Positions 7,740 through 60,933 of a stretch of DNA of 64,000 nt are shown one piece after another (the first letter of the stretch is position 1; each line of letters opens with the position of its first letter). Position numbers and translations under genes: made by a program. The notes beneath the pieces are model-generated. The model searched no databases. It had not been told where the DNA came from and worked only from the letters and a program-made list of their open reading frames with translations. The stretch lies in IMG/VR virus record IMGVR_UViG_3300006802_000073, positions 85,081 through 149,080 of that record. One strand, given 5' to 3'. The DNA comes from a virus.

Positions 7740-8684
7740 TCACCAAACAAAATTGTGTTTATAAAAATCTATTAACTCTTTTAGTTTTTCGTCAAAATTT
7801 GCTTCAGGTTTCCAACCCAATTTCTTTAACTTATTATCATTAATAGAATATCGTACATCTTGACCTGGACGATTAACTGAAAAATCTAGATATTGTTTTA
7901 TATCACCTGGTAGATCCATATATTGAATTATTTTTTGAGCTACAACTAGATTCATCTCTTCATAATTGCCAGAGATGTTATAAATTTCATTAGTTTCTCC
8001 GCTTTCAATAATTGTAATTATAGCTGCTGCTGTATCACTAGCATGTAACCATGTTCTACGAGGATATCCATTATCATGTAAAGGTGCTTGTTTTCCCAAT
8101 GCTAAGCACTTGATGGTATGGGGGATGAATTTTTCAGTATATTGACCAATTCCATAATTATTAGTTGGACGTACAATTACATAAGGGATATTAAAAGTTC
8201 TGGACCAAGCACTGATTAACATATCAGCAGCTGCTTTTGTTGCTGAATATGGATTACTAGGATTTAAGGGATCAGTTTCTACATGTGAACCTTGATGTAT
8301 ATCTCCATAAACTTCATCAGTGCTGAAGTGCAAGAATATAGGAATTTTAAATTTAGGTTGTTGTGTTATCAATTTTAATAGATGATGAACACCATTAACA
8401 TTACTATTTAGAAATACATCACTATTCATGATACTATTATCTACATGTGTTTCTGCCGCAGTGTTAATCACATAATCGCATTCATAGAGATAATTTAAAT
8501 CATTAATATCCTTTTTCTCATAAACAAACTGTTTATATTTATATAAAACATCAAGAAAATTATAATTAGCCGCATAGGTACCTGAATCAATACCTCTCAC
8601 AAACCATCCTTTTTCTAGGCATGTTTTAGTAATATGATAACCTATAAAACCTAAACATCCTGTAACATAAACTATCTTTTTCAT
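7740..8684 (-). CDS. rmlB: NDP-glucose 4,6-dehydratase (RmlB-like)
   Basis: TGCLGFIG, AAETHVD, STDEVYG, YSATKAA, RPGQDVRY. Confidence 0.88.
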   Translation of the reverse strand: MKKIVYVTGCLGFIGYHITKTCLEKGWFVRGIDSGTYAANYNFLDVLYKYKQFVYEKKDINDLNYLYECDYVINTAAETHVDNSIMNSDVFLNSNVNGVHHLLKLITQQPKFKIPIFLHFSTDEVYGDIHQGSHVETDPLNPSNPYSATKAAADMLISAWSRTFNIPYVIVRPTNNYGIGQYTEKFIPHTIKCLALGKQAPLHDNGYPRRTWLHASDTAAAIITIIESGETNEIYNISGNYEEMNLVVAQKIIQYMDLPGDIKQYLDFSVNRPGQDVRYSINDNKLKKLGWKPEANFDEKLKELIDFYKHNFVW

Positions 8685-40367: not shown

Positions 40368-41669
40368 TTACATAATATTTAGAACTGCGGTTCTTCTGTA
40401 GTATTGATTGCGATTAGCTGTGAATGTTGATCCATCAGCATCACTTAAGCTAGAAGAACTTGTAACGTATGGGTTTGCAATCATCCCATAACGTGTCTTG
40501 AAACCAACCTTAGGTTGGAAAGTATTAGGATCGACAGCACGAACCATTTGTAGAGGAACATATGGGCAGTAGAAAAGACCTGCGTCATATGGGCTTGTGC
40601 CTTTGTATCCTACGACATAGAACTGATACTGAGCGCCTAGATTTGCAGAATAAGGATCGATATAAACGCGGAAGCGACCATTTAGAACGCCTGCAAAGGT
40701 ATTGCTAGTATCATCGACATTTAGGCTAGTTGATAATGCGGGGGCATAATCAAGAACACCAGCCATTGCTAGAGCTGAAGCAACGTCTGCTGAGCAAACG
40801 ATGAAGTTACCTTTTCCTCTACGTGTATCTTGTGCAATGTGATTAGCATCGCGTTCGATATTGAATAGAAGACCCTTGAAACGCTCTACTGACCAACGAC
40901 CATTGGAGTCGATATCTAGGTCAAAAGTACCGGGTGTTGCTGTTGCTTGAGAACCTGTCTTAGCAACTTTATAAATGGTACGAATAACTTCACGATTAAT
41001 TTCAAACATAATTTCTTGTGAAAGAATATTTGAAAGTTCTGACTCGGCATCAAGACCATGAACTGCCTTAAGATCTTGAGCGAGTTCGATGGTGTATTCT
41101 GCCTTTAGAGCACGTGACTTAGCGGTAACTGTTGTCTTATCGATTGCAAAAGACATTTCGCCAAAGTCATAACCGGTTGAACCTAGTTGTTCTGCCCATG
41201 CTGTAACGTTAGCTGTACCTGTGGTATAAGTACCATTTACTGGATTTGAACCAGCATGTACAGGAGAAGCTGCACCTGAGAAATCGGTATCAGCTTCATT
41301 AAATAGTGCTTCTATACGGGTTGAGGTGTTTGCACGCTCTGTACCGTAAATAGAACGCATTGCAAAGATAAGACCTGTTGGGCCTGTCATTGGTTGAACG
41401 CCACAAACATCATATGCCATTAGATTAGGCATAGCGCGACGAACGAGACCAATAAGAATTGGATCGTACTTATCGATGCCGCTTGTTGCAGCGATGTTAT
41501 TAGCTGGGGCGGTTTCAAAAAGTGCAGCTCTTTCTTCTCTTAGAGCCTTTTCTTGGTTCTCGAGTAGAACGGAGGTAACTGCACGCTTATAAGTATCCTT
41601 AATTTCAGGAAGATCGGGGTGCTCTAGAATAGCTCCCCATTTTTGTTGTAGTCCTTCTGTCATTAACAT
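40368..41669 (-). CDS. 23: Major capsid protein gp23
   Basis: LLENQE, GVQPMTGPTGLIFAMR, KSRALKAEY, ELAQDLKAVHGLDAE, FYCPYVPL, GFKTRYG. Confidence 0.99.
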   Translation of the reverse strand: MLMTEGLQQKWGAILEHPDLPEIKDTYKRAVTSVLLENQEKALREERAALFETAPANNIAATSGIDKYDPILIGLVRRAMPNLMAYDVCGVQPMTGPTGLIFAMRSIYGTERANTSTRIEALFNEADTDFSGAASPVHAGSNPVNGTYTTGTANVTAWAEQLGSTGYDFGEMSFAIDKTTVTAKSRALKAEYTIELAQDLKAVHGLDAESELSNILSQEIMFEINREVIRTIYKVAKTGSQATATPGTFDLDIDSNGRWSVERFKGLLFNIERDANHIAQDTRRGKGNFIVCSADVASALAMAGVLDYAPALSTSLNVDDTSNTFAGVLNGRFRVYIDPYSANLGAQYQFYVVGYKGTSPYDAGLFYCPYVPLQMVRAVDPNTFQPKVGFKTRYGMIANPYVTSSSSLSDADGSTFTANRNQYYRRTAVLNIM

Positions 41670-41718: not shown

Positions 41719-42816
41719 TTATCGTGCCTTAACAGCTCTTGATAAAGCCTGAGCATAGCGTGCAATTGTATCATTTGATGTATCGAGTGGTGCTTCTTCA
41801 CTTAGAATTTGTTCTTCGGGAGAAGCTGTTTGAATCTTGGGGAAATAGTTTTCCTTAACGACTTTAACCTTCTCTCTAAACAATTCATCTGACTCATAGC
41901 TAATACCTTCAAGAAGTTTTGAAAGTTTTTCTGTTTCTGTATCAGCTAAATCGCCAGACATTTCACTAAGAATCTTATCTTTCTTAAGTTCTGATGATTC
42001 TTTTACTAGCTCAATATTTTTTTCTACTATAGTATTTAATTGTTCTTCAAGTGATGCAACTTTATCATTTAACTGCTCTAACACATTGTATTTCTCTTCT
42101 GGTACTTCGATATAATGCTCTTGGAAGAGATTCTTTAGACCGCCAATAAAATCTTCGGCGATTTCAGTTCTTAATCCATTCTCAACTGCTAGCTCATTTT
42201 CTTGCATCCATTGTTCGACGACATAGTTGAGGAATGAATCAATTTTTTCAACAAGTGCTTCTTTAAGCTCTGTTACTTCAGCTTCTTTTTGCTCTTGTAG
42301 TTGTTCACTAATTTTTTCCATTTCAGAGTTTACGCGAGCGATTACTGCTGCTTCAAAAATTGATGTTGCTTTATTACGAAAATCTTCAGATAAATCTTCA
42401 CCAAAAATTGCATTAAGTTCTGATTTAACATCTACTGATGGCTGTTCAGAAATTTGGTCTTCTTCTGTTTCTGTTTCTTCTTTAGCAACATTTCCAGAAG
42501 ATGCTTGCATATTGACTACAGATGTTGCATCTGCGACTGTTGTATAGTTAGGAGCTTGTCCAGCACCTTGAGCTTGTAAATTATTAGGTTTAATAGAAGC
42601 AGCTGCCTTGGCACCTTGGTTCTCTTCATCTTCTTCTCTTTCATCATAAGAAGCTTCTTGTGATGAACCTTGTTTAGGCATGCTTGTATCACCCGCAACA
42701 GCAGTTTTTACAGATGTATCTTTCTTTACAGAAGCTGCTCCCATTTCCTCAGCCTCATCAATTTGTTGAGCACCTGAACGTGCTAACAAATCTTTAATTT
42801 TCTGTTCAACAGACAT
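41719..42816 (-). CDS. 22: Prohead core scaffold gp22
   Basis: LSEDF..KA..IFEAAV, YVVEQW..EN.LA, LKNLF.EHYI. Confidence 0.95.
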   Translation of the reverse strand: MSVEQKIKDLLARSGAQQIDEAEEMGAASVKKDTSVKTAVAGDTSMPKQGSSQEASYDEREEDEENQGAKAAASIKPNNLQAQGAGQAPNYTTVADATSVVNMQASSGNVAKEETETEEDQISEQPSVDVKSELNAIFGEDLSEDFRNKATSIFEAAVIARVNSEMEKISEQLQEQKEAEVTELKEALVEKIDSFLNYVVEQWMQENELAVENGLRTEIAEDFIGGLKNLFQEHYIEVPEEKYNVLEQLNDKVASLEEQLNTIVEKNIELVKESSELKKDKILSEMSGDLADTETEKLSKLLEGISYESDELFREKVKVVKENYFPKIQTASPEEQILSEEAPLDTSNDTIARYAQALSRAVKAR

Positions 42817-42858: not shown

Positions 42859-43500
42859 TTAATTTTTAGAGATTAAAGTAATAAATTTACTGAATAATTG
42901 TAATTTCTTTTCTTCAGTTAATTTATGTTGTTTAATCTCATTTTTAATCTGCTCCAGTACCCAACCTTTTCCTTCTACATAAAGCCATGAAGCATCCTCC
43001 ATAATACCTTGGACAAAGGCTTGAGGGGCTGAAGGATCCGCAACTATATCTACAGTAGCAAGATGAAAATCATCTTGTACTTCATTAACACCCTCTTTAT
43101 TCATCTTTAAAGAACCTAATCCTCTTGAAGAAACTCCTAAACGAACACCCTCTTCAACAAAATTCTTTGCAATCTTTCCCATAGGAGTATCAAGGATCTT
43201 TGCTCTTCCAATAACATCGTTGCCTTCAAATCTTAAATTAGTAATTAGATGCGATACTTTATCCAAATTAATTGAAGGATTGGCTGGATGACCTAATTCA
43301 CCTAGAGCACGTTTTTCTGATATTAATTGTTGATATCTGTCAACTTCTTTTTCAAGAATATTTTTACGATATATTCTACCATTACGATTGGGTTGTTCGG
43401 CTTGCATAAAAATACCTTCAATGAAAGTACTTTTACCTCCGTTTTCTTTAGCTTCAGTAATATATTGAAGCTCTTGTGTAATTTCTGTAATTAATTTCAT
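42859..43500 (-). CDS. 21: Prohead protease gp21
   Basis: MKLITE, NRNGRIY, ALGELGHP, GVSSRGLGS, DIVADPSAP. Confidence 0.97.
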   Translation of the reverse strand: MKLITEITQELQYITEAKENGGKSTFIEGIFMQAEQPNRNGRIYRKNILEKEVDRYQQLISEKRALGELGHPANPSINLDKVSHLITNLRFEGNDVIGRAKILDTPMGKIAKNFVEEGVRLGVSSRGLGSLKMNKEGVNEVQDDFHLATVDIVADPSAPQAFVQGIMEDASWLYVEGKGWVLEQIKNEIKQHKLTEEKKLQLFSKFITLISKN

Positions 43501-43506
43501 TGTATT

Positions 43507-43905
43507 TTACCTTGGTACTGATTGTTGATCAGGTTCTTCGTACCCAGCAGTTTTAGATAAACCTAATAATACTGTACCACCAGGTGAAGGTATAGTGACT
43601 GAAATATTTGCAGTATTGTTTTGACTTAATACATAGCCAAATTGTTGTGAAAATGCCCAATTATCATTACTATAAAATAGTAAAATATTACTTCCATCTC
43701 TATTAATAGAAGATAATCCACCCGATGATTCGGGAACAGAATATACAACTGATGTTATATTTACATTACAATTAGCATATCCTCTAAATGTTTCATCTGC
43801 CATTGTTAAATCTGCATTAAGATCAATATTAGCAGTACCATCTCCAACCAATTCGATAACTGCTTGTTGACGTTGCTTCTTAAGTATAGTCTTTGTAATA
43901 GGCAT
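43507..43905 (-). CDS. Hypothetical virion-associated protein
   Basis: 132 aa ORF in the head operon upstream of gp21. Confidence 0.65.
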   Translation of the reverse strand: MPITKTILKKQRQQAVIELVGDGTANIDLNADLTMADETFRGYANCNVNITSVVYSVPESSGGLSSINRDGSNILLFYSNDNWAFSQQFGYVLSQNNTANISVTIPSPGGTVLLGLSKTAGYEEPDQQSVPR

Positions 43906-43916
43906 TTATCTCTACC

Positions 43917-44945
43917 TTATTCCGCTTTTTTAGATTCTTTTTCTTTAGTTTCAAGTTCTGCTCTACGTTCCGCATGACTTGGTATCTTTGGTGGATTTTT
44001 AACCATTGCTTTATCTTGCATCATACGTGATATACGTGATCTAGCTGATGATTCAATTACTTCTTTCGCCACACCTTTCTTTTTCTTATCATACTTAGCA
44101 AAAAGGTCTGAAAGATGCTTTGCTGGATCTTTCTTTACTGCGTCTCTATCTTTTTTAGATACTTTTGGTTCAGGGAATTGGTGTCCACCATCACGACCAG
44201 GTGGTGTTTGTGATTTGTCCATTTCATTCAAGCCTTCCGCCACACCTTGCTGACTTTGTTGTTCACGCTTTTTTAATTCTTTGCGAATCAATGCTTTGAA
44301 TCTTGCTTCATTACGATGTAAGATGCCTGGCTTCAATAAAGTTCGTAAGTGTTCTGTATCATAATCACTATAATCAGCACCTTTAGTTGGAAGTTGGTCA
44401 ACTCTGCCTTCCGCCACACCTTGTAGTTCTTTTTGTGTAGCTCCTGCTTTACGAGCAGCTTCAGCATCTTTGGCATTTTTGGTTTTATGATATTTTGCTA
44501 ATAACTCTTTTCGGGTTCCACCTTGACTTGGAGGATTATAGTTTGTAACACCTGTGGTTTCCGCCACATCTTGTAATTCTTCGTTAGCTTTAGCAATACC
44601 AGCAGTTCTTTTTGCAATTAGATTCTTTGCTAAATCATGATATTCAGATTTTTTCTGTGTAAAGGGTTTTAATTCCTTTACCTGTGCTTTTGCTTTAGCA
44701 GTATATGATGCTTTAGTTTGTTGAGAAATTTCATCAATAGATTCAACTTCTTCATTACGCTGCTTAGCATAATATGCTCCAAGAGCCATCTTTATGCGTT
44801 CTTTCTTTGTCTTACCTTTAAATTTTGGATTATCAGATTTTACAAAATCATGGATCCATTTAGACGCAGGATCGCTCTGTGATAATACTTCATCAATTTC
44901 TTCTGCATCTTCTAAGACAAAACTTTTAAACGATTTGCTAGACAT
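43917..44945 (-). CDS. Prohead core/internal head protein (gp68 position), modular
   Basis: Between gp67-like and gp21; K/E-rich; many (I/L/V)-x-E potential gp21 cleavage sites; repeated GVAE junctions. Confidence 0.65.
   Translation of the reverse strand: MSSKSFKSFVLEDAEEIDEVLSQSDPASKWIHDFVKSDNPKFKGKTKKERIKMALGAYYAKQRNEEVESIDEISQQTKASYTAKAKAQVKELKPFTQKKSEYHDLAKNLIAKRTAGIAKANEELQDVAETTGVTNYNPPSQGGTRKELLAKYHKTKNAKDAEAARKAGATQKELQGVAEGRVDQLPTKGADYSDYDTEHLRTLLKPGILHRNEARFKALIRKELKKREQQSQQGVAEGLNEMDKSQTPPGRDGGHQFPEPKVSKKDRDAVKKDPAKHLSDLFAKYDKKKKGVAKEVIESSARSRISRMMQDKAMVKNPPKIPSHAERRAELETKEKESKKAE
44064..44573 (-). repeat. Four dispersed copies of a GC-rich repeat, consensus CAAGGTGTGGCGGAAGGC
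   Basis: Exact 18-bp copies at 44232-44249 and 44406-44423; variants at 44064-44078 and 44559-44573; spacings 171, 174 and 150 bp. Confidence 0.85.
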
Positions 44946-45111
44946 CTTCGGATCCTCTATTATAGATAGTTTGAGCTAGATCTACTTTTTTAGCATCAAG
45001 CTCTGTAGATACTTTAGCAGATATTAAATCATCAAAATTATTCTGCGCCGATACATTATCACCATTTAAAATATTATCTAACATTTGTCTAATACCATCT
45101 GCATAATCCAT
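44938..45111 (-). CDS. 67: Prohead core protein gp67-like (57 aa, not in ORF track)
   Basis: MDYADGIRQMLDNILNGDNVSAQNNFDDLISAKVSTELDAKKVDLAQTIY...; directly downstream of portal. Confidence 0.7.
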   Translation of the reverse strand: MDYADGIRQMLDNILNGDNVSAQNNFDDLISAKVSTELDAKKVDLAQTIYNRGSEDV

Positions 45112-45115
45112 AATC

Positions 45116-46663
45116 TTAACCTTTTCCTTGTTGTGTATTATTTATTGCACTTTGTCCTGGAACTATAGGTGCTTCTATAGGTGGCTCTTGTGATATCTCT
45201 TTAGCTACATTTTCAATTTCATCTTCTGTCATATATAGAATATTCTTCTTAACATAATCTTGACTAAAATATACACCTACATATGGTTGAACTTGATTAA
45301 GTAAATCTATACGATTGCGTAACATCTCTGCTGTTTTTGCTTCAACAAAATATTGATCTTCAGCAAATTTAAAGCGAATAGATTCTTTAATCTCATTCCA
45401 ATCTGGTTCTACTATAACACCTTTTAAAATAAGTTGTGTCTTTAAAAGATCTCTAAATAAATCTGAAAATTTATTACGCAATCTACCAATAAATTTGGCA
45501 AATTTTAATTCATCTCTTGTAACTTCTACTTGTCTACCAAAATTTAAACCTTGTTGTGGTTGTAAACGTGTAATAGGTACATTTAATGCTTGATACATCT
45601 TCATCTTAAAATATTCTATATCATCAATTTGTCCTAAATTTTCACCACCAGGTAAAGTGGTAATTTCAGTTCCTCGTCCACCTTCTCTACGAGGTAACCA
45701 AAAATCTTCAAGCATTGATGTAAATTTTCTATCATCACGTATTTCACCTGTAGATGAATCATAAACAATTTTATTACGATATCTAGCCATGATATCTTTT
45801 AAATATTGTTCCGCTTTTAGTTTTGGTAGATTTCCCACATCAATGTAAAAAATTCTACGTTCTGGTGCTCTAGCTAAACGATAAATTACTAAAGCATCCT
45901 CCATCATTTTTAATTGATTAACTGGTTTAATAGCTTTATGTAAATAACCTACTACAATATTTTTATCCAAATCTATTAAACCAGAATGACAATACGTAAT
46001 AGTATCGGGTGTTATACGAATACCTGTTCCACTTGCAACAGTTTGACTACTAGCAAAAGATACTGAATGATTAATACCTTTTTCATTGTAGATATAGAAC
46101 TCATCAATAGTCTTAATTACTTCTACTCCACTAGGTAACTTTTCCTTCTTTATATCGCGGACTTTTTTAATTTTCCTTGGATCGATATATCTAAGTTCAG
46201 TTATTCCTCGTTTAGTATTTTTTGTATCAATAATCTTTTGATAGTAAACTCTACCATCTACATACCATCGACGAAATATATCATGCGATTTAGAATTGAA
46301 ATCTAAAAGTTTTAATATCTCTTCAAATTCATTCTCAATTGTTTTCTTTATACTTGGAGATATTTCTAATTCTTCTAAATCAAGTTGTACCGGAGGCTCT
46401 TCGTCTATATTAGCAATAGCCTCCGTTACAATATCTTCAATTGCCATATCACATTCAGGATAAATAGCCATCTGTCTGTATCTTGTAATAAGTTCAGACT
46501 CTGTTTTAGAAGTAGCATCTAAATCAACATATGTACCATAATATCCACCCGCAGAAATTGTAGTTGCACCATCATCAGGGGTTGGTGTTACAAACCCCTG
46601 ATTTTTGGCTGGCTCTTCTTTCTTGGGTTTAGTTATTCTAAAACCAAATAATGATAAGTCCAT
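45116..46663 (-). CDS. 20: Portal protein gp20
   Basis: FRRWYVDGR, YRLARAPERRIFYIDVGNLPK, EDFWLPRREGGRGTEITTLPGG. Confidence 0.98.
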   Translation of the reverse strand: MDLSLFGFRITKPKKEEPAKNQGFVTPTPDDGATTISAGGYYGTYVDLDATSKTESELITRYRQMAIYPECDMAIEDIVTEAIANIDEEPPVQLDLEELEISPSIKKTIENEFEEILKLLDFNSKSHDIFRRWYVDGRVYYQKIIDTKNTKRGITELRYIDPRKIKKVRDIKKEKLPSGVEVIKTIDEFYIYNEKGINHSVSFASSQTVASGTGIRITPDTITYCHSGLIDLDKNIVVGYLHKAIKPVNQLKMMEDALVIYRLARAPERRIFYIDVGNLPKLKAEQYLKDIMARYRNKIVYDSSTGEIRDDRKFTSMLEDFWLPRREGGRGTEITTLPGGENLGQIDDIEYFKMKMYQALNVPITRLQPQQGLNFGRQVEVTRDELKFAKFIGRLRNKFSDLFRDLLKTQLILKGVIVEPDWNEIKESIRFKFAEDQYFVEAKTAEMLRNRIDLLNQVQPYVGVYFSQDYVKKNILYMTEDEIENVAKEISQEPPIEAPIVPGQSAINNTQQGKG

Positions 46664-46675
46664 AAATTTTAATAA

Positions 46676-47251
46676 TTACCGTCTAAATAGAGATGCTGAA
46701 GAAACATTATTTTCGCTAACTAATCCCGTCCCCTCATATGGATAAAAGTGCTGATACTGCCAAGTACAGGTAAATGTACTAATATCATTATTAGCACCGA
46801 AACTTAATCCAACTTCAGAGATATCTGTAGGATAAGCATCGATAAATTGATATGTTCTTAAATCGGTACCGTTTTTATCTAATTGTGTGACATATAATGT
46901 TGCCAAATAATTTCTTGGCTCAATTCTACCTACCTTTGTACCCATATCTTCAATTGTATTCATCCATCTTTCAAGAGCAGCTCTTACAATAAAAGTACTA
47001 TCATTGATAATTGTTGTTGTCCAAGGGACAAATGTTCTATCACCTGCTAGATGAACTTCACGACCTCTATAAAGAACAGTAGCAGGAGGAATAGTTTGTC
47101 CTGGTAATGATGCAGCCGTGACTAAAAATGGTGCAACTGCGCCTGCACCATTTTCAATACCCGAAGGAAATGTAAGTGTCACTTCAAACTGATTAGGTCT
47201 TGCTCCACCTTGAAGTGTACTTCTAAATTGATCTATATTAAATGCTGGCAT
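46676..47251 (-). CDS. 19: Tail tube protein gp19
   Basis: GGARPNQFEV, AASLPG, AGDRTF..WT.TI.ND. Confidence 0.95.
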   Translation of the reverse strand: MPAFNIDQFRSTLQGGARPNQFEVTLTFPSGIENGAGAVAPFLVTAASLPGQTIPPATVLYRGREVHLAGDRTFVPWTTTIINDSTFIVRAALERWMNTIEDMGTKVGRIEPRNYLATLYVTQLDKNGTDLRTYQFIDAYPTDISEVGLSFGANNDISTFTCTWQYQHFYPYEGTGLVSENNVSSASLFRR

Positions 47252-47263
47252 TTAATTCTCCTA

Positions 47264-48955
47264 TTAGGCGCCAATTTCTGTAAATGACACTGATGTTCTT
47301 GTAGCTACGAAATTAAGTGTTATAAAGTTAATTGAACGTGCAGGCTTAACATATATATCAGCCACAAATTCATTTCTATCTATAACTTCACCTGTATTAT
47401 TTGTTTCATCACAAACAACAAGAAAATCAGTAATTCCGCGACGACCTTTTACATCTCTTAAAAATGGCTCAACCAAGTTCTTAAACTGTGATCGTGTAAA
47501 AGGATCATTAAATTCAAATAAAGAATATTTTGATGCAATTGCTATTGCTTTTTCTAAAACAATAAACAATCTACGTACATTAATACGATCAAAAGCACTT
47601 GGTTTAGATAATAATGTCTTATCACCAAAAAGAACAGTCCCTTGTCCTGCTACAGAAATTACAGGATTGATACCGTTTTTATATAAAGTATCGCGCTGTG
47701 ATTGATTTGGATTAAATGCTAGTTTAACAACATTCTTAACTTGTCCACGATTCAATCCACCAGGAGAAAACCATGGATCCGATACTAAATCTGTTCTTGC
47801 ACAAAGACCAGCAATATCACCATTTAATGGAATCCATCTATATACATCATTGTAACGATCATATTGATACTTCCAACCAGAATCCATCACCGCATAAGAT
47901 GATGAAAGATTAGAAAGATCAGTTGTTCTGTCACTTACAACAGCAGTAACTTTCGCTGAATCCGCTGTCCCTGCTTTAACTGCATCATATGTTGGTGATA
48001 AAAATACTACACAATCTTTTCTTACTTCAGCAATATTCTCAACAACTGTTTTGACATTAGTTAATGATAAATTACCCATTGGTAATAAGGAGACATCATA
48101 AAGATCAGTATTTAAAAATAGATCATATTGAGTTAAGATCTGCCCATCTGTTGGGTCTGCATCAACTCCACCAGATAATGAAAGATTTCCGGCATAAGTT
48201 AAAGAATAAGTAAGATTACCTGATGCAGCATTACCGGCATTAGAATTAGGTACCGGATGACCTCTCCAATACAAATATTGTGAGTCATTTATAACATTTT
48301 GATAATAAATTGATTCACCTTGAGCACCAACAGCATCAGGAGCAAGAGAAAGATATTGATATCTTTCTAATACTGCACCCTGTGTACCTGTAATTAATCC
48401 ATCTTCATCAACTATAGCAACGTGTACTTCATCATTGGTTGAACCAAACTTTGCTGCATATGTTGATGTACCAGGTTGAGTGTCAAATATAGCTTGGTTT
48501 GTGTTACCTATATTTGACCAATTAGCGTTTGATGCAATAAGAACCTTTAGTGAATTACCTAAGGTACCAGGATATTTTGATGTTACAAAGTTACTAGTAC
48601 TAACTGATAATGCATCATATGCATCTCTATTTTCGATAAGTTCGGCGCTAGATGCTGCCCCAACATTTGCATTTGCAACAGAGTTTTTTGCATTGCTACC
48701 AACAGCTCTAATAGTTAAAAGTTGATTAGAATATGATAAAAAGTTAGCTGCTGTAAAGAAAGATAAATAAGTGTTTGCATTTGGTTTTCCAAACACAGAT
48801 GCTAGTTCATTTTCAGAACTAATATATGTGACTACATTTGCTGGACCCCATGCAAAATTACCTACAAATCCCCCTGCGCTAGTAGAAACTGATGGCACTA
48901 CTGTAGTGAGATCAGCTTCTTTAACTAAAACTCCAGGTGAAAGTTGAAAAGCCAT
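47264..48955 (-). CDS. 18: Tail sheath protein gp18
   Basis: LSPGV...E.D, WFSPGG.NRG, FDRINVRRLF, KPARSINFI.LNF. Confidence 0.97.
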   Translation of the reverse strand: MAFQLSPGVLVKEADLTTVVPSVSTSAGGFVGNFAWGPANVVTYISSENELASVFGKPNANTYLSFFTAANFLSYSNQLLTIRAVGSNAKNSVANANVGAASSAELIENRDAYDALSVSTSNFVTSKYPGTLGNSLKVLIASNANWSNIGNTNQAIFDTQPGTSTYAAKFGSTNDEVHVAIVDEDGLITGTQGAVLERYQYLSLAPDAVGAQGESIYYQNVINDSQYLYWRGHPVPNSNAGNAASGNLTYSLTYAGNLSLSGGVDADPTDGQILTQYDLFLNTDLYDVSLLPMGNLSLTNVKTVVENIAEVRKDCVVFLSPTYDAVKAGTADSAKVTAVVSDRTTDLSNLSSSYAVMDSGWKYQYDRYNDVYRWIPLNGDIAGLCARTDLVSDPWFSPGGLNRGQVKNVVKLAFNPNQSQRDTLYKNGINPVISVAGQGTVLFGDKTLLSKPSAFDRINVRRLFIVLEKAIAIASKYSLFEFNDPFTRSQFKNLVEPFLRDVKGRRGITDFLVVCDETNNTGEVIDRNEFVADIYVKPARSINFITLNFVATRTSVSFTEIGA

Positions 48956-57312: not shown

Positions 57313-60300
57313 TTATTTAGTTTCTAATGTATTTATCCTTGTTTTTAATGAGTCAATTTCATTGTTTAATTCTTTGATTGCATTAACTAAAATCGGTATT
57401 AAGTAATCACCAGTTAAACCTAATTTTTCTTCTGATAGATCTGATACTAAGATCTTCTTATCATCTTCTAATTTACGTATTTCTTGTGCTGAAAAACCAT
57501 ATCTACGTTTGTTGTCTGTGATTTCATTAGTTGTTCTATTTTTGAATGAAAATTCAATTGGTGTAATACCTTGTAGAAAACATCTACCATGTGGTACATT
57601 GCCAAAGATATGTTTATCTCTAATATCAGAAACTGTTGTCCAACCAACTTGTATTAATGCATTTGTAATACTAGAATTACCAATTACAACGTGATTGCTT
57701 ACTCCTGCTAGATTACATAGTCCAGTTGTTCCATCACCACCTGCATAATAACCTAATGTAGAATTATTTTCTCCAGTTGTTGCGCTGAGTCCACTATAAG
57801 GTCCTATAAAAGTATTACAATTTCCTGTGGTATTACAATGTCCAGCACAAAATCCAAAAGATGCATTATAAGCCCCAATTGTGTTAAAATATCCAGCATT
57901 AGAACCGATAAAGGTATTATAACAACCTGTAGTATTACAATATCCAGCAGCATTACCATAAAAGTTATTAGCTCCACCTTCGGTATTATACTGTCCAGCA
58001 TTAGAACCAATAAAGTTATTATAACAACCTGTGGTATTAGAACATCCAGCTTGATTACCAATAAAGTTATTAAAATAACCTGTGGTATTAGCATATCCAG
58101 CTAGATAACCAATAAAATTATTATCACTACCTGTGGTATTACAATATCCAGCACTAGTACCAAAAAAGTTATTATCACTACCTGTGGTATTACTATATCC
58201 AGCAAAATAACCAATAAAGTTATTATTTGTACCTGTAGTATTAGAAAATCCAGCATTATTACCAATAAAGTTATTAAAACCACCTGTAGTATTACAATAT
58301 CCAGCACTTGGCCCAATAAAGTTATTAGAACCACCTATGGTATTATAATTTCCAGCACTATAACCAATAAAGTTATTATAATAACCTGAAGTATTACAAT
58401 AACCAGCATTAGAACCAATAAAGTTATTATTACTACCTGTGGTATTTTTATATCCAGCATAAATACCAAAAAAGTTATTACTACTACCTGTGGTATTACA
58501 AAGTCCAGCATAATAACCAAAAAAGTTATTATAACAACCTGTGGTATTATTAGCCCCAGCTTGATAACCCATAAAGTTATTATAACACCCTGAAGAATTA
58601 TCATATCCAGCACAAAAACCAAAAAAGTTATTACAACTACCTGTGGTATTATTATATCCAGTTCCTCGACCAATAAAGTTATTACTACTACCTGTAGAAT
58701 TATAAAATCCAGCCCATAAACCGATAAAGTTATTACAATTACCTGTGGTATTTTTACATCCAGCTAGAAAACCAATAAAATTATTACAAGAACCTGTGGT
58801 ATTAGAAAATCCAGCATAATAACCAAAAAAGTTATTATAACAACCTGTGGTATTACAATATCCAACGTTATAACCAATAAAGTTATTATAACTACCTATG
58901 CAATTAGAACATCCAGCATTCAGACCAAAAAAGTTATTATAACTACCTGTGGTATTACTAGATCCAGCATTATAACCAAAAAAGTTATTACAACTACCTG
59001 TGGTATTAGAAAATCCAGCACAAAACCCAAAAAAGTTATTATAACTACCTGAGGTATTACAATATCCAGCACAACTACCAATAAAGGTATTATAACTACC
59101 TGTAGTATAATATCCAGCTTGATAACCTATAAAACTATTATAGCTATCACCTGTATCAGAATATCCAGCATATGCACCCAAATAACTACCATAACCAGCA
59201 TTATTTCTACCCGCATTAAATCCTACCGCGGTAGTATAGTCACCATATGCAGAATTATAACCCGCACAAGAACCAACAAAAGTATTAAATGATCCGCAAC
59301 TATTGCGTCCAGCTTGAGTACCAAAAAAACTATTATGGCATTCTAACCCGTTTTGTGCAAAACCTGCTTCAAATCCATAAAAAGCACTACATACTGTACC
59401 TGTAGAACACGCACCAGCACAAGAACCAATAATTGTATTATAATTAGCTCCAGATCCACTGGTGCTTCCTGCATTAAAACCTATAATTACATTATCAACA
59501 TTAGTAGAGCTGTCACTAGAAGCGCAATAACCGGCAATAACATTACGACAGCCACAACCTCGTGCAAAATTACCTATAACTGTATTATAATTTCCTGTTG
59601 CGTTTATAAGAGCACATGTACCAGCGGCAAGGTTGTTACTACCCGTGGTTACATTAAGTCCAGCTCGCCAACCAAAAAAGTTATTATAACAACCGTAGGT
59701 ATTATTACGTCCAGCTTGATCACCTATAAAGGTATTATTACTACCTGTAGTATTACCTTCTCCAGCAAAAGTACCTATAAAGATATTATTACTACCTGTG
59801 GTATTAGAACATCCAGCGTTATAACCAAAAAAGTTATTATCACTACCTGTGGTATTACAAGATCCAGCATTAAGTCCAAAAAAGTTATTATAATTACCTG
59901 TGGTATTTTTATATCCAGCACAACTACCAAAAAAGTTATTATAACAACCTGTGGTATTACAAAATCCAGCATTAGAACCAATAAAGTTATTATCAGAACC
60001 GTAGGTATTATTAGATCCAGCATTAACACCAATAAAGTTATTATAAATACCTGTGGTATTATCATATCCAGAACTAGCACCAATAAATGTGTTACAGCTA
60101 CCTGTAGTATTACGATATCCAGCACGATAACCAAAAAAGTTATTATGTGCACCTGAGGTATTACAATATCCCGCTTGAGGACCAAAAAAGTTATTACAAT
60201 CACCTGTGGTATTACAATATCCAGTTTGACAACCAAAAAAGTTATTTAAATTACCTGAAGTATTAGCACATCCAGCTTGATAACCAAAAAAGTTATTAAA

Positions 60301-60933
60301 ATCACCTCCAGTATTACTAGTTCCAGCTTGATAACCAAAAAAGTTATTATTACATGCATTTGTACTACTTAATCCAGCTTGATAACCAATAAATGTGTTA
60401 TTGGTACCATATGAAATTTTGCATCCAGCTTGATAACCAATAAATGTGTTATAGCTACCTGTAGTGGTACATAATCCAGCACTAGTACCAACAAAGAAAT
60501 TGTAGCTGCCAGTAGTTGTAGAACCAGATGTACAGCTAATGATATTATCAGTAGCTGTTACTGAAAAAACTGAAGAACCTCCACCACCACCAGCAGATAT
60601 CTCTACATTAGCTGCTGATGTAATTCTACCTTGTTCATCTACTGTTATAACAGGAACAATAGTTGCATTACCATATGTGGTAGCTGTTACTCCTGTATTT
60701 TCTAAAGTAGTATCGATACTAATTATATTTGTATTAGCTTCTAATAAAACATTAGAAGAACCTGTGATATTACCTGTTAATAATATATTTGCTGCTGGTT
60801 TATTAGTTAAATCATTATAATCTGAAGAACCACCACCACCTACAGTAGAGCCATTAACAAGAAGATCAGTACCATCACTACTTAAAGTAATAGCACTTCC
60901 AGATCCTGTATTATCAATGTTTATTGAACCCAT
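57313..60933 (-). CDS. Tail fibre/adhesin with 14-aa beta-solenoid repeats and C-terminal intramolecular chaperone (peptidase S74-like)
   Basis: Dozens of AG(Y/F)xNTTGxxNNF(F/I)G repeats; SDIRDK...YGFSAQE...LVNAIKEL plus coiled coil. Confidence 0.8.
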   Translation of the reverse strand: MGSINIDNTGSGSAITLSSDGTDLLVNGSTVGGGGSSDYNDLTNKPAANILLTGNITGSSNVLLEANTNIISIDTTLENTGVTATTYGNATIVPVITVDEQGRITSAANVEISAGGGGGSSVFSVTATDNIISCTSGSTTTGSYNFFVGTSAGLCTTTGSYNTFIGYQAGCKISYGTNNTFIGYQAGLSSTNACNNNFFGYQAGTSNTGGDFNNFFGYQAGCANTSGNLNNFFGCQTGYCNTTGDCNNFFGPQAGYCNTSGAHNNFFGYRAGYRNTTGSCNTFIGASSGYDNTTGIYNNFIGVNAGSNNTYGSDNNFIGSNAGFCNTTGCYNNFFGSCAGYKNTTGNYNNFFGLNAGSCNTTGSDNNFFGYNAGCSNTTGSNNIFIGTFAGEGNTTGSNNTFIGDQAGRNNTYGCYNNFFGWRAGLNVTTGSNNLAAGTCALINATGNYNTVIGNFARGCGCRNVIAGYCASSDSSTNVDNVIIGFNAGSTSGSGANYNTIIGSCAGACSTGTVCSAFYGFEAGFAQNGLECHNSFFGTQAGRNSCGSFNTFVGSCAGYNSAYGDYTTAVGFNAGRNNAGYGSYLGAYAGYSDTGDSYNSFIGYQAGYYTTGSYNTFIGSCAGYCNTSGSYNNFFGFCAGFSNTTGSCNNFFGYNAGSSNTTGSYNNFFGLNAGCSNCIGSYNNFIGYNVGYCNTTGCYNNFFGYYAGFSNTTGSCNNFIGFLAGCKNTTGNCNNFIGLWAGFYNSTGSSNNFIGRGTGYNNTTGSCNNFFGFCAGYDNSSGCYNNFMGYQAGANNTTGCYNNFFGYYAGLCNTTGSSNNFFGIYAGYKNTTGSNNNFIGSNAGYCNTSGYYNNFIGYSAGNYNTIGGSNNFIGPSAGYCNTTGGFNNFIGNNAGFSNTTGTNNNFIGYFAGYSNTTGSDNNFFGTSAGYCNTTGSDNNFIGYLAGYANTTGYFNNFIGNQAGCSNTTGCYNNFIGSNAGQYNTEGGANNFYGNAAGYCNTTGCYNTFIGSNAGYFNTIGAYNASFGFCAGHCNTTGNCNTFIGPYSGLSATTGENNSTLGYYAGGDGTTGLCNLAGVSNHVVIGNSSITNALIQVGWTTVSDIRDKHIFGNVPHGRCFLQGITPIEFSFKNRTTNEITDNKRRYGFSAQEIRKLEDDKKILVSDLSEEKLGLTGDYLIPILVNAIKELNNEIDSLKTRINTLETK
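57760..60520 (-). repeat. ~42-bp coding tandem repeat array (fibre 1)
   Basis: Recurrent CCTGTGGTATT / CCAGC / AAAGTTATT elements at ~42-bp period; boundaries approximate. Confidence 0.85.

Follow-up and report, generated by a model that had tools for sequence, protein, structure and literature searches.

Our analysis revealed that a gene of an uncultured T4-like aquatic myophage encodes six unrelated small basic peptides in one reading frame, and that three of these are bounded by a GVAE linker. We consider it rather probable that the product is a cargo polyprotein, that the linker, which is fixed at the DNA level, acts as a crossover point for general recombination, and that the peptides would be released in the head, as predicted, by an S77 protease.

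Genome and head-gene neighbourhood

The window (the whole stretch of 64,000 nucleotides that was analysed) is part of a 149-kb viral genome record that is 87% complete; the whole phage would measure about 170 kb. Its portal protein shows 57% identity to the portals of Pelagibacter phage Mosig and of the Methylophilales Melnitz phages, and a UvsX-like RecA is encoded in the genome. The polyprotein gene is located in a row of head and tail genes, given here in order of transcription.

47264-48955, minus strand: sheath
46676-47251, minus strand: tube
45116-46663, minus strand: portal
44938-45111, minus strand: gp67-like prohead core ORF, 57 aa (weak match to phrog_1064 'prohead', E 0.0016)
43917-44945, minus strand: polyprotein ORF, 342 aa, at the gp68 position
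43507-43905, minus strand: conserved ORF without family, 132 aa, present in all syntenic orthologues
42859-43500, minus strand: prohead serine protease (gp21, T4-type Peptidase_S77; PF03420, E 2e-36)
41719-42816, minus strand: scaffold
40368-41669, minus strand: major capsid protein

The order sheath, tube, portal, 57-aa ORF, X (the polyprotein position), 132-aa ORF, protease, scaffold and capsid is common to the orthologues L135 and L137-L141. T4 late-promoter-like TATAAATA boxes are found immediately 5' of the sheath, scaffold and capsid genes, and the polyprotein ORF appears to be a late gene of the head operon. Its location at the classical head-core locus beside the protease, whose gene lies 400 bp downstream, ties such arrays of modules to head assembly. 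The first, sequence-only reading of this DNA had assigned the ORF to the gp68 position. This holds for the genome position; the sequence could not be related to any family, and 'gp68' is a label of position only. Pelagibacter phage Mosig carries five small ORFs and no polyprotein at this locus, and similar, beta-rich small ORFs at the place of the 132-aa ORF.

Layout of the polyprotein

The polyprotein can be divided into a leader, a spacer, six modules and the joints between them, as follows.

44910-44945, minus strand: leader MSSKSFKSFVLE, capsid-targeting-like, codons 1-12
between leader and N1, minus strand: spacer DAEEIDE, from reading of the protein
44730-44888, minus strand: module N1, aa 20-72, ending in joint EEVESIDE; recurs internally or terminally in other proteins (P0019, P0110, P0114)
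44559-44729, minus strand: module N2, aa 73-129, ending in QDVAE; elsewhere in the array of L139-L141
44556-44573, minus strand: joint 1, decayed, CAAGATGTGGCGGAAACC, QDVAET, 3 mismatches; left breakpoint relative to L135
44409-44558, minus strand: module M1, aa 130-179, 50 aa, ending in QGVAE; missing from L135
44406-44423, minus strand: joint 2, exact 18-mer by sequence match, QGVAEG
44235-44408, minus strand: module M2, aa 180-237, 58 aa, ending in QGVAE; family widespread
44232-44249, minus strand: joint 3, exact 18-mer, QGVAEG; right breakpoint relative to L135
44064-44234, minus strand: module M3, aa 238-294, 57 aa, ending in GVAK; family recurs
44061-44078, minus strand: joint 4, decayed, AAAGGTGTGGCGAAAGAA, KGVAKE, Glu lost, 4 mismatches with the core GGTGTGGCG intact; followed by V-I-E↓S
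43920-44060, minus strand: C-terminal module, aa 296-342, preceded by V-I-E↓S; directly after N1 in L139-L141

Each of the six modules is basic (pI 9.0-9.9) and small (5.3-6.7 kDa). Pairwise Smith-Waterman comparison of M1, M2 and M3 gave no score that was significant against shuffles, which confirms that the modules are mutually dissimilar, as had been claimed, and rules out that they are diverged tandem duplicates. The polyprotein matched no family and no recognisable domain in Pfam and PHROG, and tblastn against 50,697 GenBank phage records gave no match; the same searches found no homology to the T4 proteins IPI, IPII, IPIII, Alt or gp68. A search of Rfam was also without a match. Look-up of M2 in the ESM Atlas returned generic helical look-alikes only (whole-protein pTM 0.20), and a single-sequence AlphaFold2 model was helical and too poor for a fold search (pTM 0.22). 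The predicted models show no compact fold, and their least confident stretches lie directly after each joint. No effector function was found for the six basic modules by domain and structure look-ups, so that the idea of injected anti-defence effectors in the sequence-only reading gained no support: the peptides are small, basic and helical, and a domain could be recognised in none of them.

The GVAE joint in this gene

The 18-mer CAAGGTGTGGCGGAAGGC occurs exactly twice in the ORF, together with two decayed copies. All four are in frame at spacings of 150, 174 and 171 bp, as noted before and confirmed by our sequence search, and these spacings yield modules of 50, 58 and 57 aa. No copy was seen in 100 shuffles, and no further one in the 149-kb genome. 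The retention of GTG-GCG against codon bias, likewise proposed before, was verified: GTG makes up 7.2% of Val, GCG 5.8% of Ala and GGC 5.0% of Gly codons in the genome, and the probability of GTG GCG given Val-Ala is 0.004 per site, which brings four such sites to near 3e-10.

The module bodies in the polyprotein have a GC3 of 0.11-0.23, matching the low GC3 of the genome. The M2 body has a GC3 of 0.21 here versus 0.31-0.42 in twelve other copies, and differs from other copies at 24-40% of silent sites, with both of its joints still exact. M2 has thus drifted to the local AT-rich codons while its joints were held constant, which recency alone does not account for. The decayed joints changed non-synonymously (Gly to Asp in joint 1, Glu to Lys in joint 4), and since this concerns two of the four, this phage does not need a cut at each of its joints.

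Conservation of the joint across phages

More than 120 IMG/VR contigs contain the exact 18-mer, frequently in multiple copies within one ORF, whereas its synonymous version in the commonest codons was found in only 12. Among the matches listed, the flanks carry about 0.1 bit per position (140 distinct contexts), the QGVAEG frame is open in 153 of 154 copies and all copies are in sense orientation. We then counted GVAE sites of carrier ORFs outside those used for ascertainment, with the expectation taken from the ORFs' own codon usage: among the matches listed, GGTGTGGCGGAA is used at 65% of 136 sites versus 0.47% expected, a count that ignores phylogeny and in which sites are not independent events, since the carrier contigs are partly related to one another. 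Nine arrays found by protein similarity gave 28 of 37 sites (76%) versus 0.66% expected. The claim that the repeat is conserved at the DNA level is therefore well founded (65-76% versus about 0.5% expected).

Conservation extends beyond the 18-mer. Irrespective of the residue, the codon preceding the joint has G as its last base (AAG 40/48, GAG 30/44, CAG 29/29), and the codon after it starts with T (TCN in 51 of 54 Ser, TTR in 19 of 21 Leu). The constraint acts on bases rather than codons, and with fixed bases on both sides the element comprises about 21 nt, AG-CAAGGTGTGGCGGAAGGC-T. To our knowledge the joint has not been described, as no description of it was found in the literature. In 596 Gb of prokaryote genomes the 18-mer gave 56 matches, nearly all single copies; these, many of them in high-GC actinobacterial genera (for instance Nonomuraea and Micromonospora), are taken as background and give no clue to the host.

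Two further candidate roles of the motif were considered. An internal Shine-Dalgarno sequence with in-frame restart was dropped for want of a conserved start codon at a workable distance, and a two-tetrad G-quadruplex is weak, being missing from many joint variants. The array of L023, a higher-GC T4-related phage, has the joints AAQGVAEG, EAVAEG, LMAEG and GMAEA, and a GIY-YIG/NUMOD-type homing endonuclease gene (7870-8592) is located there between the capsid gene and the array gene.

Exchange of modules at the joint

From the portal to the end of N2, the syntenic orthologue L135 shows 82% DNA identity to our phage. Homology stops right after GCGGAA of joint 1 and restarts at CAAGG of joint 3; between these breakpoints lie M1, a joint and M2 in our phage versus a single unrelated module in L135. 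M3 and the start of the C-terminal module are 96% DNA-identical to L135 (window 44030-44251 versus L135 2698-2922), which, set against 82% in the flank, suggests a recent separate transfer. The end of the L135 contig (2921-2948) repeats the 28 bases before it in inverted orientation; this is probably an artefact of assembly, by which the orthologue's ORF is cut off.

In L139-L141, P0004 and P0007 the modules N1, N2 and C are shared in another order (N1-C-...-N2-...) and with other inserts. Three of these array ORFs, with EEVES(I/V)DE as second joint, are located as follows.

L139, 4001-5044: array ORF
L140, 879-2162: array ORF
L141, 1501-2490: array ORF

The module boundaries in L139-L141, P0004 and P0007 are (I/V/L)-(D/E)-E in ordinary, varying codons. 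As the EEVESIDE joint shows normal synonymous variation, fixation at the DNA level is special to GVAE.

The M2 family comprises 22 copies in 19 contexts, where 18 different neighbours are seen on the left and 18 on the right, and is kept at 80-86% identity across phages that otherwise share nothing; the M1 family comprises 9 copies in 8 contexts. Altogether, 256 internal GVAE-bounded modules fell into 177 families. Protein matches to the query peak in their starts at residue 175 and in their ends at residue 238, which are joint edges. Of the ends of DNA homology in array genes, 18% fall at most 9 nt from a recognised joint versus 3% at random (6-fold enriched); since these are a minority of the ends, many breakpoints lie elsewhere. 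Judged from these comparisons M1, M2 and M3 are shuffled, recurring in other phages with different neighbours. Because the joint is conserved as DNA and homology starts and stops inside it, it works as a frame-preserving crossover point.

These data bear directly on the sequence-only reading, which had seen in the repeat a recombination site and had held that fixed module content among orthologues, or modules that are diverged duplicates, would speak against this. The L135 breakpoints inside joints 1 and 3 agree with such a site, and recurrence of modules in different order, number and context is seen both in the M1, M2 and M3 families and in the orthologue arrays; the module content of orthologues is not fixed, and the modules are not diverged duplicates. 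As a whole, that interpretation is supported in part. In the array ORF of L123 (558-2645) two joints are nearly adjacent (KVAEQGVAEG), perhaps a scar left where a module between them was deleted.

Predicted processing and packaging

The T4 protease gp21 cuts after L/I-X-E and was first seen to act at a Glu-Ala bond (PMC9026906), and related proteases of giant phages cut after S/A-X-E (PMC5694885). In our phage the sequence L-F-E↓T of the capsid protein falls, in the alignment, at the place of the T4 maturation site L-T-E↓A. V-A-E is a plausible gp21-type cleavage site, as predicted from its fit to aliphatic-X-Glu; the Val at P3 of the joint departs from the documented T4 preference (L/I). An S77 protease was detected in 7 of 18 large carrier contigs, and in 2 of the 3 with a completeness of 90% or more.

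The leader of the polyprotein resembles the T4 capsid targeting sequence (CTS) MKTYQEFIAE, which ends in I-A-E (PMC8442874), and packaging would proceed via this leader. The leader pattern F-K/Q/R-x-F-(L/I/V)-x-E heads three other ORFs of the genome, versus 0.11 matching ORFs per shuffle. These candidate packaged proteins are encoded outside the window (G000:C1; L155).

59766-60908, minus strand: leader ORF
63588-64757, minus strand: leader ORF (DUF6267)
67092-67679, minus strand: leader ORF

The leaders of the three ORFs read MKFRDFIVE, MLSFQTFLTE and MNEFKSFLEE. In the arrays L083, L125 (1869-4772) and L126 a module opens right after GVAE with DLSRRGFLKGAGAAGALAGAAGGANA↓F, whose residues (SRRGFLK...ANA) are those of a textbook twin-arginine (Tat) signal, including the AxA site for its cleavage. 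Since a Tat signal works only at a free N-terminus, this is a hint of cleavage at the joint, and it hints that an injected peptide might be exported to the host periplasm.

Proposed function and alternative explanations

In the explanation that we favour, the gene would encode a prohead-core cargo polyprotein made of a T4-like capsid-targeting leader and six basic peptides, each ending in a putative aliphatic-X-Glu site and three of them bounded by a joint common to many phages, (Q)GVAE(G), in which 18-21 nt of DNA are held constant. Modules are replaced, added or lost at this joint with the frame preserved. General homologous recombination (UvsX-like RecA) acting on the short GC-rich identity would carry out the exchange, and the joint might stay uniform because a module that departs from the standard joint could no longer be exchanged with the common pool. 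Once the head is assembled, the S77 prohead protease would cut after the Glu of each joint, and the peptides freed inside the head would accompany the DNA as DNA-associated or ejected basic peptides.

Exchange by the phage's general recombination system is probably the most economical reading. An identity of 18-21 nt is short for efficient homologous recombination of the T4 type, which leaves room for a dedicated enzyme, be it a recombinase or a homing or nicking endonuclease, that would recognise the joint of about 21 nt in a sequence-specific manner and move the cassettes. The system would then be integron- or homing-like in the true sense. In length and asymmetry the conserved tract (18 nt plus AG and T) is like the recognition site of an enzyme, it does not differ between genomes of 32-52% GC, and a GIY-YIG gene adjoins the array gene in L023. 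We nevertheless regard such an enzyme as unlikely. Tyrosine (PF00589) and serine (PF00239) recombinases are absent from the 149-kb genome (87% complete), and its single GIY-YIG ORF is about 90 kb away from the array. No enzyme family was consistently present within 4 kb of arrays (120 arrays, among the matches listed), where the neighbours were Dps-like, DNA polymerase, gp32 and UvsX. The joint has no dyad symmetry and folds no better than shuffles on either strand, and modules are flanked by two intact copies, with no split site. For lack of a recombinase, a joint hairpin and a constant neighbouring enzyme, the integron-like mechanism of the sequence-only reading was not upheld. The joint might instead be a mere linker or protease peptide, its uniform DNA having hitch-hiked on a recent spread of cassettes and the crossovers being incidental. 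Many silent sites in the bodies of the M2 family are indeed invariant too, the 96% identity of M3 to L135 points to recent transfer, and joints decay in this lineage. We find this quite improbable, as the same 12-18 nt are found beside 177 unrelated module families, joints keep codons of 5-7% usage where the bodies have diverged at silent sites and taken on local codon usage, and the neighbouring bases are fixed across different amino acids.

A constraint on the mRNA, in which the joint would pause translation, form a structure of G runs (GG-N3-GG-N1-GG-N2-GG) or be processed so as to aid the folding or separate production of each module, would agree with the sense orientation of every copy among the matches listed, the four GG runs of the core and the rarity of GTG and GCG codons in this genome. 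It would leave the breakpoints at the joint unexplained, however, and we give it hardly any credence: there was no Rfam match and no stable fold beyond shuffles, the unrelated flanks offer no conserved pairing partner, fixation is no weaker at the common codons CAA, GGT and GAA than at the rare ones, and the fourth GG is missing where Ala, Asp or Ser follows the joint. The protein might also be a structural component of the head core or scaffold, analogous to gp68, that is degraded and expelled at maturation, with modules that are fast-evolving filler without function after injection. Its position among core genes, the all-helical folds of low confidence and the failure to find a domain would suit such a role, as would the cutting of T4 gp67, gp68 and gp22 into small peptides (PMC9026906). 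Filler would not, however, keep M2 80-86% identical across otherwise unrelated phages, and related arrays hold real domains (HicA, GP88, DUF5710) and export signals, which makes this very unlikely.

Within the cargo polyprotein explanation, it is possible, though we propose it tentatively, that a large pool of uncultured T4-related phages has the GVAE joint in common as a 'standard connector', selected as recombination joint and protease site at once and forming an enzyme-free cassette system. Any phage that keeps the connector could then plug in-frame peptides of the pool into its head polyprotein and release and deliver them. If true, a packaged or injected repertoire would evolve by exchange of modules at a universal connector, with no frame errors and no dedicated recombinase, and this would be a rare clear case of silent-site selection for evolvability. 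The hundreds of small module families would be candidates for functions in host take-over or anti-defence, and the connector would offer a design rule, taken from nature, by which several cargo proteins could be loaded into T4-type capsids.

Comparison with known systems

Like the polyprotein, the T4 internal proteins IPI, IPII and IPIII and Alt begin with a short leader that ends in aliphatic-X-Glu, are late and head-associated and give small basic products. An S77 prohead protease is encoded by the phage in both cases, processing after Glu being predicted here, and the IP loci of T-even phages are variable, as is the array. Unlike in the T4 internal proteins, many cargo units are fused in one frame with putative internal sites, and the internal site is fixed as DNA and common to very different phages. 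T4 gp67 and gp68 are similar in genome position (portal, small core ORF, gene, protease) and in the small-peptide cleavage expected of both; family homology to them was not detectable, and the module content here varies between close orthologues.

Motif-mediated modular shuffling has been described for the promoter/stem-loop (PeSL) cassettes of T4-type phages (PMC2839356, PMC4122927), and conserved motifs take part in the shuffling of their tail-fibre genes 37/38 (PMC3157838). In these systems, as here, short conserved sequences flank variable segments and serve as preferred crossovers for the phage's own recombination. However, PeSLs are intergenic and regulatory, whereas the GVAE joint is located inside one ORF, in frame and without a stem-loop, and the tail-fibre motifs belong structurally to a single fold, whereas the joint separates independent modules. 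The joint further differs from both in that its silent sites are conserved and that it probably doubles as a protease site. With integron cassettes the arrays share an expandable series of unrelated units with a recurring site between them, but an integrase and a folded site of the attC type are both lacking, and the units are in-frame peptides and not promoterless genes.

The polyvalent proteins of phages and conjugative elements (PMC5512222) also combine several unrelated modules per polypeptide in a mosaic manner, and packaging and delivery with the DNA may be supposed for both. Polyvalent proteins, however, have recognisable effector domains and often a self-processing peptidase, whereas the modules here are of 50-58 aa and without known domains, and no fixed DNA joint is described for polyvalent proteins. 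Counted against a minimum of at least two recognisable effector or enzymatic domains, the polyprotein has none. Some of its mosaic relatives (P0013, P0015, P0026/P0034/P0036/P0041) contain single shared modules plus a HicA toxin domain, DUF5710 or GP88.
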